From the UHGV virus genome UHGV-0026213: a stretch of 64,000 bases of DNA; one strand, written 5' to 3'. The stretch is from a virus. Made by a program: the position numbers and the translations under genes. Under the pieces are notes generated by a model. The model had not been told where the DNA came from. It made no database searches and saw only the letters and a program-made list of their open reading frames with translations. Of this stretch, positions 8,788-60,495 are shown one piece after another. Positions within the stretch are counted from its first letter, which is position 1. Each line of letters begins with the position of its first letter.

Positions 8788-8812
8788 CAGATATATATTA
8801 CCTAGGAGAGAG
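8788..8812 (+). promoter_or_regulatory. Conserved promoter-like motif, copy 1 (cagatatatattacCtaggAgagag) with downstream palindrome
   Basis: One of four near-identical 25-bp motifs, each in an intergenic region upstream of a plus-strand gene block; followed by inverted repeat gagtgaa...ttcactc. Confidence 0.6.
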
Positions 8813-10151: not shown

Positions 10152-10197
10152 AGAATCATCGCTTAATCACCCCACCATTTACCTAAAGGAGCATTAA

Positions 10198-15737: not shown

Positions 15738-15756
15738 TTAACTAAAATCGTACAAG

Positions 15757-15784
15757 GGGTGGTAAACCACCCCTCCATTATTGT
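15757..15784 (+). terminator. Hairpin, possible terminator (weak T-tract)
   Basis: ggggtggt-aaa-ccacccc. Confidence 0.4.
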
Positions 15785-15806
15785 AATTACCTAAAGGAGT
15801 ATTAAA

Positions 15807-20954: not shown

Positions 20955-20960
20955 TTAAAT

Positions 20961-20992
20961 CGGGGAGGGGGTAACCTCCCCGATATTTCTTT
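20961..20992 (+). terminator. Intrinsic terminator
   Basis: cggggagg-gggtaa-cctccccg followed by atatttcttt. Confidence 0.6.
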
Positions 20993-22286: not shown

Positions 22287-22834
22287 TCATCGTCTCCTTT
22301 AATCAACCCTAATTCGATTAACAGTTCAAAATCGATATGACGGAATCTTGTGTCGAAGTCAGATTCCCAATCGATACGGATACCCTGGCATTCTTCTGGC
22401 GTTAGCTCAGGAAAAATCACGCTATTAAATTTCTCCCGCTCATCGTAAAACCCATCAATCGGTGAGTTCGGGTTACGTGTTGCGAAGATAGTAATGCCTG
22501 GGAAGGACAATGCCAACACAGTGATAGATTCTGCGCTGGGTTCGCTTAAAGAGCGGCGTAGAAACGCAATTTTGTGACGTGGGAAATCCAATACCCGCTC
22601 TTCAAACCCTGGATTACGTTTTTCGATTTCCGCGACCGACAGGTCAGTAAGTTCGGTGCAGTACATCGGGATGATCACAGTCACGCCGTGACGAATCAGC
22701 AAGCGTTTTACGTCATCGGTAAAATCTTCACCGTTAATCACCACATAACAACCGAATAGCTTACTGTTTTCCAGAAACTTATCCAGAAGTCGAATTCTAC
22801 GCTTCGTAATATTGTTGATCAGAATTGGTTTCAT
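22262..22834 (-). CDS. Hypothetical protein in the radical-SAM/peptide operon
   Basis: 190-aa ORF overlapping the radical-SAM gene end. Confidence 0.55.
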   Translation of the reverse strand: MKPILINNITKRRIRLLDKFLENSKLFGCYVVINGEDFTDDVKRLLIRHGVTVIIPMYCTELTDLSVAEIEKRNPGFEERVLDFPRHKIAFLRRSLSEPSAESITVLALSFPGITIFATRNPNSPIDGFYDEREKFNSVIFPELTPEECQGIRIDWESDFDTRFRHIDFELLIELGLIKGDDECLLLVKA

Positions 22835-24119
22835 CTTTGGCTTCTCTTAATAATTTTTCCTTTTGGGCGCGTTCACGGACACAGCGTGGACAATAACACA
22901 TACTCGTGTCGTGGAACGCTTTTGCTGACGTCGTACCCATCTTCTGTTTCCAGTATTCCGCCACCATCAGTTTCGCTGTCGTCCAGCCACACTGACGTCG
23001 TTCAGCGTGATACGCTTTACGGTCTTCTAACGTTCCTTCCCCGTTCTCGTAAGAAGCCGCCGCGCAGCTACCACAAGCGTGTTTCATCGGACAACCTAAA
23101 CAGGTCTCTGGGTAGTTGGTATATTGCGTTTGAATCTCTTCTAACAATTTACCGTTGTCCAGACTGACGAATTCCCGACCTACCAACTCAAACACCGCAG
23201 AACGTGACGTTACCGTTGACATAAAGCGGTTACAGCCAAAGATCTTACGGTCAAACCCTAAGCACGTCATGTGCGTTAACGTCCCACAGAACGGACGTAA
23301 ACGTTCTGGGTTCAACCGTACGGTGTCATTATACAGTAACTGGTCACGCCAGTTCGGTTCCCAAATCGTATCGAAATCCAACCCTTCTGGAATGATGTGC
23401 GATAAGATATTACGTGGGTTGGTGTGTAATCCTTTCTCAACCCAATAATCTATCACATCCATCATCTGTAAAGCGATTGACGTCGCCATGCTACGTGGCA
23501 TAACGTCTTCGAAAGTTACGTTTCCAGAAATTGTCCCACCGCCAGTAATGTCAATTAATGACTTCATCCCCGCAGCATAGAACGGCAGCGTTTCTAACGT
23601 AAAGGTTGCTTTTACGCCGAGCTCTGCAATGCCAACCTCTTTTAAGTAGTTATAGCCACGTACTGCGGCTTCGTAAGAACCTTGACGTGTCGTTGTGAAG
23701 ATACGGTATCGATCGTGGGACTCCGGTAAGCCGTCAATCGAAACCCCAACTGAAAGTTTGTCTTTCCAACGTTCTACAATCTCACGGTTCAACGGACGAT
23801 CTAACAGCGTTCCGTTCGTGGAGATACTAAACATAAACGGTCGGTTGTGTTCTTTGCACAACTGCTCAGCGGTTTCAAACGCAGCCAGCAGCAGTTTAGG
23901 CTGCATGAACGGCTCACCACCGATAATGTCGATAATAACTTCAACATTCGGTTCGTTTTTATCACGTTCAAAACAGGCGTGCAAGAAATCAACAATGTCG
24001 GCCGCTTTGTTGTTACGTGGGTACTTACGTTCGTAACAATATTCGCAGTCCAGGTTACACGAAAGGTTGGTTACAATCTGATACGTTAACTGCTTAGGGA
24101 ATTCATTTGCTTGGCTCAT
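22797..24119 (-). CDS. Radical SAM enzyme with SPASM/twitch-like Cys-rich C-terminal domain; candidate peptide maturase
   Basis: CNLDCEYC (CX3CX2C) at residues about 21-28 and IIGGEPFM glycine-rich SAM motif; C-terminal CGTLTHMTC...CLGCPMKHACGSC...CYCPRC cysteine cluster. Confidence 0.8.
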   Translation of the reverse strand: MSQANEFPKQLTYQIVTNLSCNLDCEYCYERKYPRNNKAADIVDFLHACFERDKNEPNVEVIIDIIGGEPFMQPKLLLAAFETAEQLCKEHNRPFMFSISTNGTLLDRPLNREIVERWKDKLSVGVSIDGLPESHDRYRIFTTTRQGSYEAAVRGYNYLKEVGIAELGVKATFTLETLPFYAAGMKSLIDITGGGTISGNVTFEDVMPRSMATSIALQMMDVIDYWVEKGLHTNPRNILSHIIPEGLDFDTIWEPNWRDQLLYNDTVRLNPERLRPFCGTLTHMTCLGFDRKIFGCNRFMSTVTSRSAVFELVGREFVSLDNGKLLEEIQTQYTNYPETCLGCPMKHACGSCAAASYENGEGTLEDRKAYHAERRQCGWTTAKLMVAEYWKQKMGTTSAKAFHDTSMCYCPRCVRERAQKEKLLREAKDETNSDQQYYEA

Positions 24120-25026
24120 TTGCCGCCCCTCTATTACGCCCTGCCATCACCACACGACGAATATATTCGTACGCCTCTACACCGATAGAGAAGGCCAGTT
24201 GGTTACATCCCGATTCCAGAACGTTAGGCGCATTCTGGAGTTGGTGCTCACCGCCGTCTGCATTAATCCAAAGACTTTCGCTGCAAACGTTACACCCTTC
24301 TTCAAACACTTTACTTACCGTAAAGCCGCATTCACGACTATTTACTACATTCAGTCGTTCAATGTTGTCCTGAACCTGATAGTAGCCGTAAATAAAGTTC
24401 ATGACGTGGTCAGGCGATAAAGGTTTTGGCATTTTCGCATCTAAGAGTAACGTCATTGCACGGAAACCGTAATGGTAAATCGCGCTGTGCAGCTGAATAA
24501 TATCTTCGTGCCAGCGTTTGTCCCCTAAACGGTCCCGTGTCAGGACACCCCAAGTCTGGACATTATCCAGCTCGTAGATCGTTTCCAGTGCTTCGTAACA
24601 GCCTTCGTCAATAAAGCGCATAAACGGGCGCTCAGACGACTTAAACCCATCGATGCTAACGTAGACATTGTCAAACTGTTTTAGCAACGGGAGATGCGAT
24701 TTACGCATCTTTAAGCCATTGGTATACAACTGGTGTTTGAGTTCTGGACGAATCACTTTTAATTCGTCAACAAACGCCTCAATTTTACGGGTTGCCAGTA
24801 ATGGCTCACCACCCGTCCACTGAATTTCGGTAATGGTTGGATTAGCTTCCAGCGCTTCCAAAATTCGTTCACGTTGAAACTCTCGCGGAGAATCTTCACG
24901 ATTCATGTAATAGGCTCCACCGCAGAAGCTACAGTCCAGGTTACACTTGGACGTAGCGACTACGGACAATACGGTGGGTTTATCGTATAAACGATTCGAT
25001 AACCTTGGTTCTGCATTGGTTGTCAT
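24103..25026 (-). CDS. Radical SAM enzyme (second, shorter)
   Basis: CNLDCSFCGG CX3CX2C motif and WTGGEPLL; GGAG RBS. Confidence 0.75.
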   Translation of the reverse strand: MTTNAEPRLSNRLYDKPTVLSVVATSKCNLDCSFCGGAYYMNREDSPREFQRERILEALEANPTITEIQWTGGEPLLATRKIEAFVDELKVIRPELKHQLYTNGLKMRKSHLPLLKQFDNVYVSIDGFKSSERPFMRFIDEGCYEALETIYELDNVQTWGVLTRDRLGDKRWHEDIIQLHSAIYHYGFRAMTLLLDAKMPKPLSPDHVMNFIYGYYQVQDNIERLNVVNSRECGFTVSKVFEEGCNVCSESLWINADGGEHQLQNAPNVLESGCNQLAFSIGVEAYEYIRRVVMAGRNRGAANEPSK

Positions 25027-25047: not shown

Positions 25048-25947
25048 TTAAATATAATCAATGGCGAACAAAGGATCGTCGTCTACGTTAGCACCAGGGG
25101 TTAACAAGAATGGAGAGTTATACGCTTCCAAAATACGGTTAAGGTCTTTATAACGGACATTTAAACGTTCTAAATCCGCTAACGTTACGTTACGGTCCAA
25201 CACCGCCGACACTGCTGCTTTCTCTTCGTCAGTTAACGTGACTTTCGTCATTAAGAAACTAACGAGTTTTGCCAGATCCGCTTCTGTTGACGGATGCTCG
25301 CCAATACGTGTTTGAATCAAATGCTGCATCCAAGGCTTACGGATGCGTTTTGTGATTTCGTGTTCATCCGTCAGGGCAATCCACACGGAACGTTCACGAT
25401 CCCACACGAACTTATAGCTATACGCCATTAAATCCGCTAAGCAATTAATCCCTAACGCTTCGTACCCTTCAATTTCGATATACGATTCCGTATCGAAATA
25501 GTTCTTCGTTTCTGGTGTTACCAGGGTAAAGAAATACGGGAACGAGCCTAAGTAATCCGGCGACCACCAACGACGGGCAACTGGTTTTGCGCCCATTTCT
25601 TCAAATGGGGTAAAGAACAATTCCATATCTACGGAGTTATTCAAAATCCCGTCACTAAAGAAATATTTACCCGCAACCAGTTTACCACGCAACTCGGAGT
25701 CACCGGTAAAGACCACTACACTTTCTGCCGTCAGATCACGAATCTTAAACGTATTTTCTACACGATAGTTTTTACGATCGGTAAAGAAACGTCCGCGCAC
25801 TTTAGGCCATTCGCCCGGCAACTGAGTCAGCAGACGAACTTCATCTGCTAAGTGTGCACGTACGGAATCAGGGGAAGAAATGTGAAGTGGATGATTGAAA
25901 ATTGTTTTGTACGCTAAATGTAAATCATTCTTCATTGATTGCTCCAT
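25048..25947 (-). CDS. Hypothetical protein between peptide genes and radical-SAM genes
   Basis: 299-aa ORF, no motif recognised; candidate accessory protein by position only. Confidence 0.5.
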   Translation of the reverse strand: MEQSMKNDLHLAYKTIFNHPLHISSPDSVRAHLADEVRLLTQLPGEWPKVRGRFFTDRKNYRVENTFKIRDLTAESVVVFTGDSELRGKLVAGKYFFSDGILNNSVDMELFFTPFEEMGAKPVARRWWSPDYLGSFPYFFTLVTPETKNYFDTESYIEIEGYEALGINCLADLMAYSYKFVWDRERSVWIALTDEHEITKRIRKPWMQHLIQTRIGEHPSTEADLAKLVSFLMTKVTLTDEEKAAVSAVLDRNVTLADLERLNVRYKDLNRILEAYNSPFLLTPGANVDDDPLFAIDYI

Positions 25948-26084
25948 TTATTTCACGGTCAAACGGACATTCAGGGTATAGAACCCACCGCGCCATTGCC
26001 TACCGGTGACTTGAAACTCAGTAGTAAACCCGTACGATTAACTCGGTTATTGCGTAATAGACATACTACCACTGGAGGGCTTAG

Positions 26085-26291
26085 TTACCTTCCCCCCGCA
26101 CCTTTACTACAGCTACCACTGCACGACCAGCTACATCCACCGTTACAGTTATAATGGCTTAAAGGTAAACCGGCAAGGTTGTTGGTTGAAGACACGGTGC
26201 CTTGGTTTGCAATATAGTTGTTTGCGTTAGCGGTCGTAATATACCCTTCCGCTGTTACTAACCGATCACGAAGGTTCTTAAGGCTAATCAC
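26085..26291 (-). CDS. Cys-rich precursor-like peptide C (short core)
   Basis: GGGAGG RBS 4 nt before GTG at about 26291; product (M)ISLKNLRDRLVTAEG...LSHYNCNGGCSWSCSGSCSKGAGGR. Leader and leader-core junction are conserved with peptides A and B. Confidence 0.55.
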   Translation of the reverse strand: MISLKNLRDRLVTAEGYITTANANNYIANQGTVSSTNNLAGLPLSHYNCNGGCSWSCSGSCSKGAGGR

Positions 26292-26293
26292 AA

Positions 26294-26692
26294 TTACCTC
26301 CCAGAACACCCACCAGAACAACTACCTGAGCAGCCTGCAGAACAGTTTCCTACACACGAGTTAGAACAACTCCCCGTACAGCTTCCTGAACAGCCACCAG
26401 AACAGGTATTCGAACATCCACTACAGCCTGCACTACAACCTGATACACAGTTTGCAGAACAGGAAGAACCACAGCCGCCTGATGCGTTCCCCGTACAACC
26501 ACCAGAACAGCTCGAACAGGTCCAGCTACAGCTCCCACCACAGTCATAGTGGTTGCGAGCTTGTCCACCGAATAAGTCTGCGTTGTTCGTCGCTTTCCCA
26601 CGAATATAGTTTTGTACTGCACCCGTATTCTTCAATGCAGTGTTGTCAATGTTATTTAGCCGCGCTTGTAGCGCAGGTAATCCAATTGCCAT
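26294..26692 (-). CDS. Cys-rich precursor-like peptide B (about 50-aa leader plus about 80-aa Cys/Gly/Ser core)
   Basis: Core ...HYDCGGSCSWTCSSCSGGC... with Cys every 3-5 residues (about 24 Cys); leader similar to peptide A. Confidence 0.65.
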   Translation of the reverse strand: MAIGLPALQARLNNIDNTALKNTGAVQNYIRGKATNNADLFGGQARNHYDCGGSCSWTCSSCSGGCTGNASGGCGSSCSANCVSGCSAGCSGCSNTCSGGCSGSCTGSCSNSCVGNCSAGCSGSCSGGCSGR

Positions 26693-26702
26693 TTTTCACC
26701 TC

Positions 26703-27098
26703 TTAGGTTGGGCCAGAACAGCCACCAGAGCAAGCACCAGAACAACCCGTAGAACAACGGCCCGAGCAAGCGCCCCCACAGGTCCCACTGCAACCTGAGC
26801 AGCCACCGGAACACGTTGAACTACATCCAGTACACTGGTTACCGCACGCGGATGAGCAGCTACCTACACACACTGACGTGCAGGTGCCCGAACAACTCGT
26901 ACAGCCATGCGTACAACCGTTTGAGCACGTCCAGCTACAGCTTCCCCCGCAGTCTAACCGACTTGGCGTCCAACCCGAAAAAGTGTCGGCGGCATTATGT
27001 GCTTTCGACGCAACTTGCGGATCAACACGTGGGCCAGTTGCCATTTGGTTCTCTACGTTGGTGATTCGGTCACGTACATTTTTAACACTGATCGCCAT
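26703..27098 (-). CDS. Cys-rich precursor-like peptide A
   Basis: AAGGA RBS then ATG at about 27098; leader MAISVKNVRDRITNVENQ..., core ...RLDCGGSCSWTCSNGCTHGC... with about 25 Cys. Confidence 0.65.
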   Translation of the reverse strand: MAISVKNVRDRITNVENQMATGPRVDPQVASKAHNAADTFSGWTPSRLDCGGSCSWTCSNGCTHGCTSCSGTCTSVCVGSCSSACGNQCTGCSSTCSGGCSGCSGTCGGACSGRCSTGCSGACSGGCSGPT

Positions 27099-27103
27099 CA
27101 CGT

Positions 27104-27156
27104 ATCCTTAAAATAAAAAAGAATGGAGGACTACGCCCATAAGCATAGTTCCTCCT
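27104..27156 (-). terminator. Minus-strand terminator/attenuator between the 401-aa fibre gene and the Cys-rich peptide genes
   Basis: On the minus strand: ggaggaactatg...cgtagtcctcc hairpin followed by attcttttttatttt, about 20 nt before the peptide A start codon. Confidence 0.6.
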
Positions 27157-27165
27157 GTAATAAAG

Positions 27166-28371
27166 TTATTTCGTACCCGCTTCTGCCTGAACGTCATCAC
27201 GGGACGTCAAGTTAGCGTTAACGTGTACTGGAGCCTGAACCACACCACCGTATTTCTTGTGGAGATAGCCTGTGTGTGGGTTATCTGCCGCAATATGGTT
27301 TTGTAGGTTCTGATTCGCCTGACTGATTGCGTTCGTGTTATTCGCAACCTGTTGTTTAAGCGCATCCAGGTTTTGTTGCAGATTATCAATTTTCTGATCG
27401 GACTCATTACCCCGCTGTTCTAACGCAGCAATGCGCTGAATCGCTTGATTGAGTTTGGTGCTCAGATCGTTGATATTTTTCTGTAACTGTAACACTAGCG
27501 AATTTAGGTTCGCCAATGCCAATGCCATTTTCTGGTAGTTTTGGGCAACGATGTTAAGTTGGTCGTTCCACGCTTCCAAAGATTTGACAACAGCATCAAT
27601 ACGTTTTCCTAACGCTTCGTCTGCTTTCTTCAACGCATTAATATCAGTAATGGTTGCATCGATGGCAGACTGCACATCACGGATCAGTGCACGGATCTCC
27701 GTTTCTGTTAACCCGTTAACCTGGTGAATATCCAGATGGTGGACGTTACCCGTGGCGTTAATGTGCGCGTTCAGTGCGTCCAGGAAATCGTTTTTCAGGC
27801 TTTCGAGAATCGCTTTGATGTTCTCAAGCTGTACAGCATCGCCCGCCGTTATCGCATCTTTAATGCCAGCGAGCACTGTAATGATATATTCGAAGCCGTA
27901 AATATCACCGACGTCTTTATACGTCGGTGCCGACGGAAATGTATCAGGAACATTTCGCAAGTCTTTAAAGCCAACAGTTCGATTATCGAGATTCAACTCA
28001 GCAATCGCCTGTTCTATCGCGGGCACGTTTGCCGACTGCGGACCCCCGACTACTTGCGCCGATACCGTGATATCGGTCGGAATCGCGGTGTTCGTTACAA
28101 CAACCGCCATTACTACTTCCCGGTTCTTCGTCAATTTCTCGTAAGCCTGGTGTGCAAAAATCAACTCATAGTCCGTTCCGCGCTCATACGTCGCATCTGG
28201 GCGGTTGGCAACCCGCAAGCGAAACGTATCAGCATAAAACGGTCCATCAGGAAAAGCAAACGCACGGTTAACTTTACCTGTACCTAACGTAACCTGACGC
28301 TCCACGGCGTTAGAGGTTAGGGTTCCCGTTAAATCTAAAGGGTATTGGTATACAATGGAGGCCATGGCCAC
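27166..28371 (-). CDS. Tail fibre-like protein: N-terminal module shared with the three giant fibre genes plus long coiled coil
   Basis: N-terminal FPDGPFY...GTDYEL module; residues about 170-360 are heptad-rich helical sequence. Confidence 0.6.
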   Translation of the reverse strand: MAMASIVYQYPLDLTGTLTSNAVERQVTLGTGKVNRAFAFPDGPFYADTFRLRVANRPDATYERGTDYELIFAHQAYEKLTKNREVVMAVVVTNTAIPTDITVSAQVVGGPQSANVPAIEQAIAELNLDNRTVGFKDLRNVPDTFPSAPTYKDVGDIYGFEYIITVLAGIKDAITAGDAVQLENIKAILESLKNDFLDALNAHINATGNVHHLDIHQVNGLTETEIRALIRDVQSAIDATITDINALKKADEALGKRIDAVVKSLEAWNDQLNIVAQNYQKMALALANLNSLVLQLQKNINDLSTKLNQAIQRIAALEQRGNESDQKIDNLQQNLDALKQQVANNTNAISQANQNLQNHIAADNPHTGYLHKKYGGVVQAPVHVNANLTSRDDVQAEAGTK

Positions 28372-33604: not shown

Positions 33605-33645
33605 TTTTAAATAAAATGGATACCCCTCCCCGTTACAGGGAGGGG
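33605..33645 (-). terminator. Minus-strand terminator between the 1402-aa and 1727-aa genes
   Basis: cccctccc-cgttaca-gggagggg hairpin with T-rich sequence on the minus-strand 3' side; a second hairpin at about 33649-33674. Confidence 0.6.
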
Positions 33646-33683
33646 TTACCTACGGACACACAACTGCCCGTAGGCAGCCTGTC

Positions 33684-42225: not shown

Positions 42226-42293
42226 TCTCTACTCCTATAGTCCGTGGGCGTCGAAGTTCATACTATGACTTGAATCTATAGAGGAAAAGAGCT

Positions 42294-51679: not shown

Positions 51680-51689
51680 GTGTAGTCTT

Positions 51690-51718
51690 GGCCCCGATAC
51701 GTTCGGGGTCCTTTTTAC
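51690..51718 (+). terminator. Intrinsic terminator
   Basis: ggccccga-tacgt-tcggggtc followed by ctttttacg. Confidence 0.65.
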
Positions 51719-51745
51719 GACATGTTTACCTAAAGGAGTATTAAA

Positions 51746-52892: not shown

Positions 52893-52935
52893 GGGAGAAC
52901 CTTCGGGTTCTCCCTTTCTTTATTTTTTTCTTTTT
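52893..52935 (+). terminator. Intrinsic terminator
   Basis: gggagaacc-ttcg-ggttctccc followed by tttctttatttttttcttttt. Confidence 0.8.
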
Positions 52936-52965
52936 ACACCACACTCCGTCTTTATGGAGGTGGGT

Positions 52966-60434: not shown

Positions 60435-60442
60435 TTTAAATC

Positions 60443-60478
60443 CCCTACTCCTCCGGGAGTAGGGTTAATTCTTTTTCC
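60443..60478 (+). terminator. Intrinsic terminator
   Basis: ccctactcc-tccg-ggagtaggg followed by ttaattctttttcc. Confidence 0.8.
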
Positions 60479-60495
60479 ATCTTAGGAGTATTAAA

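Follow-up and report, generated by a model that had tools for sequence, protein, structure and literature searches.

Introduction

All genes of bacteriophage phiKZ are transcribed by two phage-encoded multisubunit RNA polymerases (PMC4666361, PMC7598289), and the signals of phiKZ are the closest described counterparts of the element considered in this study, a hairpin overlapped by a promoter-like motif in the short gap between a tail-fibre gene and the gene of a cysteine-rich peptide (peptide A) in the virus genome UHGV-0026213. The whole stretch of DNA analyzed, hereafter the window, comprises 64,000 nucleotides (nt). Judged by its sequence relationships, the window is part of an SPN3US-like, phiKZ-related jumbo phage, and its transcription is attributed, by analogy with phiKZ, to phage-encoded polymerases and not to the host sigma-70 RNA polymerase.

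The middle promoters of phiKZ carry the element AAanTTACc at about -24, the late promoters show only T(-3)ATG(+1), and the late promoters as well as some of the middle ones start at the G of TATG (PMC4666361). The non-virion RNA polymerase (nvRNAP) of phiKZ contacts TATG on the opened non-template strand (PMC12809450), and the strength of its promoters also depends on undefined downstream sequence (PMC12809450; PMC4666361). With respect to termination, 133 termination sites of phiKZ, many of hairpin type, have been mapped by ONT-cappable-seq, and at least 61 of these were predicted to be intrinsic terminators; of the 84 intrinsic terminators that were predicted in the six phages of that study, the majority belong to phiKZ (PMC10914365).

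In bacteria, promoter-coupled terminators have been described, in which terminator DNA aids a promoter of the sigma-70 RNA polymerase (Fletcher et al., bioRxiv 10.64898/2026.08.19.745784). The locus reported here resembles them in that the termination signals of one unit and the initiation signals of the next overlap within a short DNA, and differs from them in that the motif is that of a non-canonical phage polymerase and the predicted start lies inside the loop of the putative terminator. The early promoters of phage N4 are hairpins with stems of 5-7 base pairs (bp) and 3-nt loops, and the single-subunit virion RNA polymerase (vRNAP) that uses them needs supercoiling and the host single-stranded DNA-binding protein (SSB). 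These promoters are similar to the present locus in having a recognition element within a short DNA hairpin at the start region, with both extrusion and recognition of the DNA hairpin being hypothetical here. Hairpin terminators and TTAC/TATG promoters of phiKZ, as well as promoter/terminator overlap in bacteria, are already known; a strict TTAC-N15-TATG class in phages of the SPN3US group and a start within the loop of a co-varying, terminator-like hairpin seem to be undescribed, and our literature search found no transcription map of SPN3US-group phages.

An earlier note on this DNA had read the hairpin as a terminator or attenuator, behind which the peptide genes and the following radical S-adenosylmethionine (radical-SAM) genes would be expressed by read-through; as stated, that reading amounts to routine genome punctuation. 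We propose, with about even confidence, that the gap holds a compound element, in which the fibre transcripts are terminated by the hairpin and the peptide and radical-SAM genes are served by a promoter with its start at G27138.

A conserved hairpin in the fibre-peptide A gap

The minus-strand hairpin with its T-run, which the earlier note had placed in the 64-nt gap between the fibre stop codon and peptide A, was borne out by the sequence, by folding and by conservation alike. On the minus strand its 5' arm (27155-27142) reads GGAGGA-a-CUAUGCU with A27149 bulged, the loop (27141-27138) is UAUG and the 3' arm (27137-27125) is GGCGUAGUCCUCC, giving 13 pairs, three of which are G-U. The 42-nt hairpin segment folds at -19.7 kcal/mol, compared with -8.0 +/- 2.1 kcal/mol in 200 dinucleotide shuffles (z-score -5.56), none of which was as good. 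In a fold of 96 nt the hairpin is dominant, and besides it the T-run was merely seen to pair weakly with the Shine-Dalgarno sequence. A simple terminator scan of the window did not list this hairpin, presumably because the scan is restricted to short stems that have no bulge, enclose a loop of 3-8 nt and are immediately followed by a T-run, and an Rfam scan of positions 25800-27500 gave no match at E <= 1.

The gaps between the fibre gene and peptide A were gathered from GenBank phages, IMG/VR contigs and metagenome contigs, representing six genus-level groups, namely the clade of the window itself, Seoulvirus (SPN3US, STsAS), Erskinevirus (Asesino, phiEaH2), Machinavirus (Parshik, ChrisDB, Caitlin), Wellingtonvirus and Derbicusvirus (Phobos, EarlPhillipIV). 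All 12 distinct versions from these six groups harbor a hairpin in the same place, with 9-17 pairs, energies of -14 to -26 kcal/mol and z-scores ranging from -2.5 to -7.2. The arms vary in sequence between the groups yet pair, and compensatory changes were noticed between close relatives, namely between the window and the compared sequence L023 (C-G to U-A) and between Phobos and EarlPhillipIV (U-A to C-G). Chimeras that combined a 5' half from one genus-level group with a 3' half from another reached a mean of only -9.4 kcal/mol, compared with -19.6 kcal/mol for the native hairpins. Because the arms co-vary and the chimeras lose about 10 kcal/mol, it is the pairing itself that is under selection, and the hairpin is more than a product of chance. 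MAFFT and RNAalifold applied to 13 variants returned no consensus structure, as the bulge positions and arm lengths differ among them, and per-sequence folds, pair lists and the arm-swap test were used in place of such a consensus.

Terminator features of the hairpin

The hairpin combines a G+C-containing stem-loop with a U-rich tract. The tail after the stem is AUUCUUUUUUAUUUU, the T-run extends over 27123-27110, and the window tail AUUCUUUUUU contains eight U in its first 10 nt. This arrangement exists in the sense orientation only, as the plus strand after the hairpin reads TGTAATAAAG without a T-run. The strength of the T-run differs by phage, being strong in the window, Asesino and Parshik and weak in SPN3US, ChrisDB and Wellington; in Derbicusvirus it is absent, with the stem directly followed by TTTAAAGGA or GTTAAAGGA, and the hairpin and TATG are retained. 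Within the window, GC-rich hairpins followed by T-runs occur in about 20 intergenic gaps, which is about half of all its gaps.

Similar to the intrinsic terminators of phiKZ-like phages (PMC10914365), the hairpin, one of many such elements in its genome, is an intergenic stem-loop in the sense orientation, located after a gene and followed by a T-rich tail. It differs from the phiKZ terminators, in which the 5' arm is rich in pyrimidines (CCYCCCC) and the tail is TTAT, in its purine-rich 5' arm, its longer stem with G-U pairs and a bulge, and its invariant TATG loop, and in that its 3' ends are predicted. The phiKZ terminator motif BCCYCCCCHWWDGGGRRGGBYTTATKYYGT is not matched, the arms being reversed here (GGAGGA...UCCUCC), whereas other terminators of the window do resemble it, for instance those at 33646-33622 and 20959-20984. 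The role that the earlier note assigned to the hairpin as terminator of the fibre transcripts is plausible in view of the conserved hairpin, the U-tract and the phiKZ precedent, and the sequence features make real termination at this place in the window phage likely.

A different function of the same stem in RNA processing or stability was also considered, with the hairpin acting as an RNase III-type cleavage site or as a block to 3'-exonucleases in read-through RNA. The length (13-17 bp) and imperfection of the stem, which is unlike the short GC-rich terminators nearby, and the retention of pairing where the U-tract has been lost would suit this function. Nevertheless, it leaves the invariant TATG loop and the upstream box unexplained, and the U-tract is present in most genera, so that we regard RNA processing as a very doubtful explanation.

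One further terminator and one terminator-like hairpin are recorded at this point. Between the structural genes of 1402 and 1727 amino acids (aa), the window has a canonical terminator at 33622-33646 (minus strand), ACCCCTCCCTGTAACGGGGAGGGGT plus ATCCATTTTA, after which neither TTAC-N15-TATG nor TATG is found; the large fibre genes past it are probably reached by read-through, in the way the earlier note had imagined for peptide A. In phiKZ, a terminator-like hairpin GGGAGCCATTTGGCTCCC with a T-rich tail (L045 3470-3548) is located about 50 nt upstream of the start of PHIKZ062. This gene is served by the mapped middle promoter P62M, phiKZ has terminators within 5' untranslated regions (5'UTRs), and the PHIKZ062 hairpin may likewise lie within the 5' leader, like the reported phiKZ 5'UTR terminators.

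A promoter-like motif overlapping the hairpin

The same gap carries TTTATTAC-N15-TATG at 27164-27138. The box TTTATTAC spans -26 to -19 relative to G27138, its TTAC (27160-27157) occupies -22 to -19 as in a phiKZ-type middle promoter, and the TATG follows at a fixed spacer of 15 nt, equal to that of the phiKZ promoter P78M and of 13 copies in SPN3US, so that the agreement concerns both sequence and spacing. P78M is a mapped middle promoter with a AAAATTACC element that also has a correctly placed TATG (Yakunina et al., PMC4666361). Upstream of PHIKZ078, the phiKZ sequence contains the exact AAAATTACC element and reads GTGTAAAATTACC-AAATGTGTTAAATA-TATG, which is TTAC-N15-TATG, with an upstream box AAAATTAC at the same distance from TATG as in the window; this match is the sole TTAC-N15-TATG in a 50-kilobase stretch of phiKZ. 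Compared with the phiKZ middle promoters (PMC4666361), the motif of the window has in common the TTAC box, the P78M-identical spacer, the TATG, the A/T-rich upstream sequence and the location upstream of a gene on the coding strand; it differs in belonging to another phage genus and host, in the conserved hairpin into which its spacer folds together with the early transcribed region, and in that the start is predicted.

The invariant positions in the alignment of relatives are the Shine-Dalgarno sequence, two stem bases, the TATG at the apex, and an AC that precedes TATG by 15 nt (by 16 nt in Wellington). This AC is present in all of the 13 aligned relatives and lies outside the stem in most phages. 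The full box at the peptide A site is TTAC in the window clade, Seoulvirus, ChrisDB, Caitlin and Wellington. RNA starting at G27138 would have a leader of 40 nt, and the fold test revealed no structured 5' leader from this predicted start (z-score +0.7). Taken by analogy with phiKZ, a functional start at G27138 is somewhat favored. The earlier note had looked for the next possible promoter space in the 137-bp gap at 25948-26084; a promoter-like motif is already present within the fibre-peptide A gap, with its predicted start inside 27100-27165, and the 137-bp gap, which is short in Asesino and phiEaH2, contains no strict match to the motif, only TAAC-N18-TATG.

TTAC-N15-TATG as a motif class in SPN3US and the window

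In the whole genome of SPN3US, 29 matches to TTAC-N15/16-TATG were found, 15 of them wholly or mostly in the non-coding 5% of the genome. All 15 of these have N=15, and the majority are situated 24-100 nt upstream of a start codon on the same strand. When TTAC-Nk-TATG was counted in the non-coding DNA of SPN3US for k=8 to 24, 13 copies were observed at k=15 and 0-1 at each other k, compared with 0.46 expected at k=15 and a maximum of 4 in 3000 shuffles. The consensus of the SPN3US sites is W-rich, TTTAC(G/A), N14, TATG, and the SPN3US homologue of the peptide A element (144258-144280, minus strand) is among the 13. About five of the 15 sites display the order terminator hairpin, T-run, TTAC box, spacer and TATG; of this usual SPN3US order of terminator, T-run and TTAC box, the peptide A element is an overlapped variant.

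Two copies of the strict motif are present on the coding strand of upstream intergenic DNA of the window, against 0.09 expected, one in the peptide A gap and the other upstream of an SMC/SbcC-like gene. The enrichment was seen only with strict N=15 in non-coding DNA, and TATG alone showed no apparent excess in the intergenic gaps of the window by informal count. The SMC site is preceded by a canonical CTTCGG-loop terminator GGGAGAACCTTCGGGTTCTCCC at 52894-52915 (plus strand) and a T-run. The layout of CTTCGG-loop terminator, T-run and TTTTTTAC-N15/16-TATG, with an unconserved spacer, is shared among the sequences compared at this gene, which were those of the window, Erskinevirus, Seoulvirus, Machinavirus (Machina, ChrisDB), Wellingtonvirus and Derbicusvirus; in Derbicusvirus, TATA replaces TATG. 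As a separate observation, the 859-aa SMC/SbcC-like open reading frame (ORF) is listed from TTG 52891, and it truly begins at ATG 52966, which is preceded by GGAGGTG; the N-terminal extension that results from the listed start covers the terminator and the promoter-like motif, and the predicted leader is 10 nt.

These sequence patterns suggest that TTAC-N15-TATG is probably a promoter signature of the SPN3US phage group. According to a review, the middle and late promoters of such phages are not predictable bioinformatically (PMC7598289). The strict motif would be a sequence-only predictor of one promoter class of SPN3US, kept at two loci in related enterobacterial jumbo phages.

It is on this evidence that a pure terminator or attenuator has to be weighed, in which termination is partial, the peptide and radical-SAM genes are expressed by read-through only, and the TTAC and TATG matches are functionless at this locus. 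The strong hairpin and T-run of the window are in line with it, as is the terminator at 33646-33622 without the motif in the same operon, where read-through is probably used. On the contrary, the stems and flanks vary around an invariant TATG and an equally invariant AC located 15 nt upstream of it, and terminators need neither a conserved loop nor a conserved box outside the stem. Moreover, the motif class is spacing-specific in SPN3US, with the homologous peptide A element among its 13 intergenic members, and the hairpin persists in Derbicusvirus without a T-run. A pure terminator is thus considered unlikely, and the dependence of the peptide and radical-SAM genes on read-through is not what the data favor, since the gap itself has a P78M-like TTTATTAC-N15-TATG of a kind that is spacing-enriched in SPN3US.

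Proposed termination and initiation in one element

In the compound element that we propose, RNA reading out of the fibre gene would have both arms and the U-tract and hence be able to terminate, with the hairpin and U-tract serving as a factor-independent terminator, or as a 3'-end hairpin, for a phage-encoded RNA polymerase; most fibre transcripts would end at about 27118-27110. The same DNA would act as a phage promoter of the phiKZ 'middle' type, starting at G27138 in the hairpin loop. The two functions would be superposed, in that the 5' arm serves as the promoter spacer, the loop consists of TATG, and the 3' arm is made up of the 13 bases that follow the start G. RNA from G27138 would have the 3' arm only, so it could not form the terminator and would run on into peptide A and beyond, and the T-run would double as part of the 40-nt leader of this promoter-derived mRNA. 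The cysteine-rich peptide and radical-SAM module, up to the terminator at 21593-21563, would then be mainly its own transcription unit with some read-through added. By analogy with phiKZ, it probably belongs to another temporal class than the late fibre genes, presumably the 'middle' type. The analysis demonstrates the hairpin with its conservation and covariation, and the motif with its conservation and its enrichment at one strict spacing in the intergenic DNA of SPN3US; termination and initiation at the gap, their efficiency and the polymerase involved are what we infer from these patterns.

Several points weigh against this proposal. On the promoter side, Erskinevirus has AAAC as its box at the peptide A site, Derbicusvirus has TAAC and Parshik has ATAC, a departure from TTAC in three genus-level groups that would equally suit a pure terminator; these deviating groups use TTAC at the SMC promoter, and the peptide A promoter may therefore be weak or lost in them. 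Over the whole window, the count of TTAC-N13-19-TATG was not above chance, and WWAC-N15-TATG was likewise without enrichment. The purified nvRNAP of phiKZ was inactive on middle promoters in vitro (PMC4666361), and the literature search found no mapped 5' or 3' RNA ends for any phage of the SPN3US group. On the terminator side, the T-run is weak or absent in some relatives that keep the hairpin, indicating that canonical termination is not the sole selected function. In addition, the stem has G-U pairs and a bulge, whereas the other terminators of the window are of the perfect GC-rich tetraloop type, and the hairpin does not fit the phiKZ terminator consensus CCYCCCC...GGGRRGG.

The opposite possibility, that the inverted repeat serves initiation or its control, for instance as an extruded DNA hairpin that exposes TATG in single-stranded form or by modulating the melting of the promoter, and does not terminate at all, draws on a second locus. 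Another TTAC-N15-TATG site, located upstream of SPN3US gp76, is likewise accompanied by a TATG-centred hairpin, present in four genera with different arms and without a T-run, and Wellington already has a canonical terminator upstream of the gp76 site. The z-scores of the hairpin at this site are -4.3, -3.4, -2.6, -3.5 and -1.4, and its presence at a start site hints at a role beyond termination. The binding of TATG by nvRNAP on the opened non-template strand and the effect of downstream sequence (PMC12809450, PMC4666361) would agree with such a role, as would the peptide A hairpin that Derbicusvirus keeps without a U-tract. However, about 11 of the 15 SPN3US promoters of the class have no such hairpin, the SMC promoter is without it in five of six relatives, it is missing at P119L and P78M of phiKZ, and a strong T-run follows the peptide A hairpin in most genera, directly 3' of a gene. 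A function in initiation only is accordingly judged quite unlikely.

The gp76 hairpin of SPN3US, GGGCACTGGG-TATG-AACCCGTGCCC, is found at 72639-72680 (L047 22639-22680) with an energy of -18.6 kcal/mol, and its homologues (L051-L054) occur in STsAS, Asesino, ChrisDB and, weakly, Wellington. The hairpin as a general feature of these promoters was rejected, owing to its absence at phiKZ P119L and P78M and at most SPN3US sites.

A narrower idea arises from the two independent sites, peptide A and gp76, which have TATG-centred hairpins across genera. A subset of the TTAC-N15-TATG promoters of SPN3US-group phages could be 'hairpin promoters', in which a co-varying inverted repeat around the start site offers a single-stranded TATG in its loop to the non-canonical multisubunit polymerase or switches the site between terminator and promoter states. 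This is a speculative suggestion to which we attach little credence; if true, the undefined 'downstream determinant' by which the phiKZ nvRNAP chooses its promoters would lie in nucleic-acid structure.

The last alternative is a leader-peptide device, in which the mini-ORF starting at the loop ATG couples translation to termination or to the translation of peptide A. The ATG is always present, TATG being invariant, purine-rich 5' arms (GGAGGA, GAGGAC, GAGGUG) are found 9-11 nt upstream of it, and the window mini-ORF has a stop codon that overlaps the peptide A Shine-Dalgarno sequence. Nonetheless, the ORF varies from 8 to about 18 codons, it stops before, in or beyond the peptide A start, and its peptide is unconserved; the Shine-Dalgarno-like arm is sequestered in the stem, and the 96-nt fold shows no alternative antiterminator. 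Such a device is given almost no credence here, and for a regulated attenuator neither a conserved leader ORF nor a competing fold in the 96-nt segment nor an Rfam family was found.

With regard to the arms themselves, the 5' arm is a perfect AGGAGG and the 3' arm an anti-Shine-Dalgarno-like UCCUCC, and a 12-codon ORF starts between them. The mini-ORF at 27108-27146 was judged incidental, as its length, frame end and Shine-Dalgarno sequence are unconserved in relatives.

Gene layout and the downstream module

The coordinates of the features are presented in Table 1. The fibre protein is 77.6% identical to SPN3US gp167, 'virion structural protein 20', in a protein-level search. It has relatives over its full length in Erwinia jumbo phages and, for its N-terminal part, throughout the phiKZ-like phages; its Pfam matches are weak coiled-coil hits only. 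The gene order at the locus agrees with that of SPN3US gp169 to gp161. A megablast comparison of the locus with phage genomes returned no match, and the relatives were found by protein-level searches instead. Peptide A is listed from GTG 27101 in the ORF list, and every relative begins at ATGGCGAT, that is at ATG 27098. Measured from the fibre stop, the gap therefore has 64 nt if it is taken to end at the GTG and 67 nt if it is taken to end at the conserved ATG, with 10 nt between the fibre stop and the start of the stem and 15 nt between the end of the stem and the Shine-Dalgarno sequence, the consensus of which (AAGGA/AAAGGA) is invariant or nearly so in the alignment of relatives.

Table 1. 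Features at the fibre-peptide A gap, its flanking genes and the second copy of the motif in the window
Feature	Position	Strand	Basis
401-aa coiled-coil fibre or virion structural gene, SPN3US gp167 homologue	27166..28371	-	ORF list, identity
Fibre stop codon TAA	27168-27166	-	sequence
Promoter-like box TTTATTAC, upstream	27157..27164	-	alignment, comparison with phiKZ P78M
Hairpin, 13 pairs, one bulged A, UAUG loop	27125..27155	-	fold, z-score, covariation
TATG at hairpin apex, predicted start G27138	27138..27141	-	invariance; analogy with phiKZ T(-3)ATG(+1)
12-codon mini-ORF MLMGVVLHSFLF, starting inside the hairpin behind AGGAGG	27108..27146	-	part of a 30-aa GTG ORF
T-rich tract UUCUUUUUUAUUUU, 3' of stem	27110..27123	-	sequence
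Shine-Dalgarno AAGGA of peptide A, 6 nt before ATG 27098	27105..27109	-	alignment
Cysteine-rich CXXX-repeat peptide A, 131 aa	26703..27098	-	ORF list, relatives
Downstream unit: peptides A, B and C; 299-aa protein; two radical-SAM proteins; 190-aa and 223-aa proteins	ends at bidirectional terminator 21593-21563	-	ORF list, terminator scan
Second motif copy TTTTTAC-N15-TATGG, upstream of SMC/SbcC-like gene	about 52930-52957	+	sequence, relatives

The downstream module starts with three cysteine-rich CXXX-repeat peptides (26703-27098, 26294-26692 and 26085-26321, minus strand), which share the leader end DCGGxCSW and are followed by two radical-SAM proteins at 22797-25026 (minus strand). Peptide B matches TIGR04114, a CXXX-repeat target family, and the 440-aa radical-SAM protein resembles the TIGR04115/PapB maturases below their cut-offs. 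The peptide A region is unannotated in SPN3US and many relatives, and the peptide/radical-SAM module is more unusual biology than the gap element. The significance of the gap is that this module, which stands beside tail-fibre genes, probably has its own phage-polymerase promoter and may follow another schedule, and not a fixed sub-stoichiometric ratio. A start site in the terminator loop of the preceding gene would be a compact design, and it bears on the choice of start sites by unusual polymerases.

Other elements of the window

The sequence ATATATTAC occurs in four exact copies, at 8793, 13006, 45024 and 49412 (plus strand), all of them intergenic, within CAGATATATATTAC(T/C)TAGG, and each followed by a short hairpin. 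The early promoters of phiKZ have an AT-rich TATATTAC-type element, and by analogy the four CAGATATATATTAC sites look like early promoters of the window phage, which would be used by its virion RNA polymerase.

A near-palindrome TCATACTATGA at about 42259-42269 is situated in the 68-nt divergent gap between a 1440-aa gene (minus strand) and a 420-aa gene (plus strand). It provides both strands with a TATG that lies 30-35 nt upstream of the respective start codon, and this TATG pair may represent back-to-back late promoters.

A near-identical translation-initiation region, (TT)TACCTAAAGGAG(T/C)ATTAAAATG, common to several genes, was also noticed at 10152-10197, 15738-15806, 51680-51745 and 60435-60495 on the plus strand.

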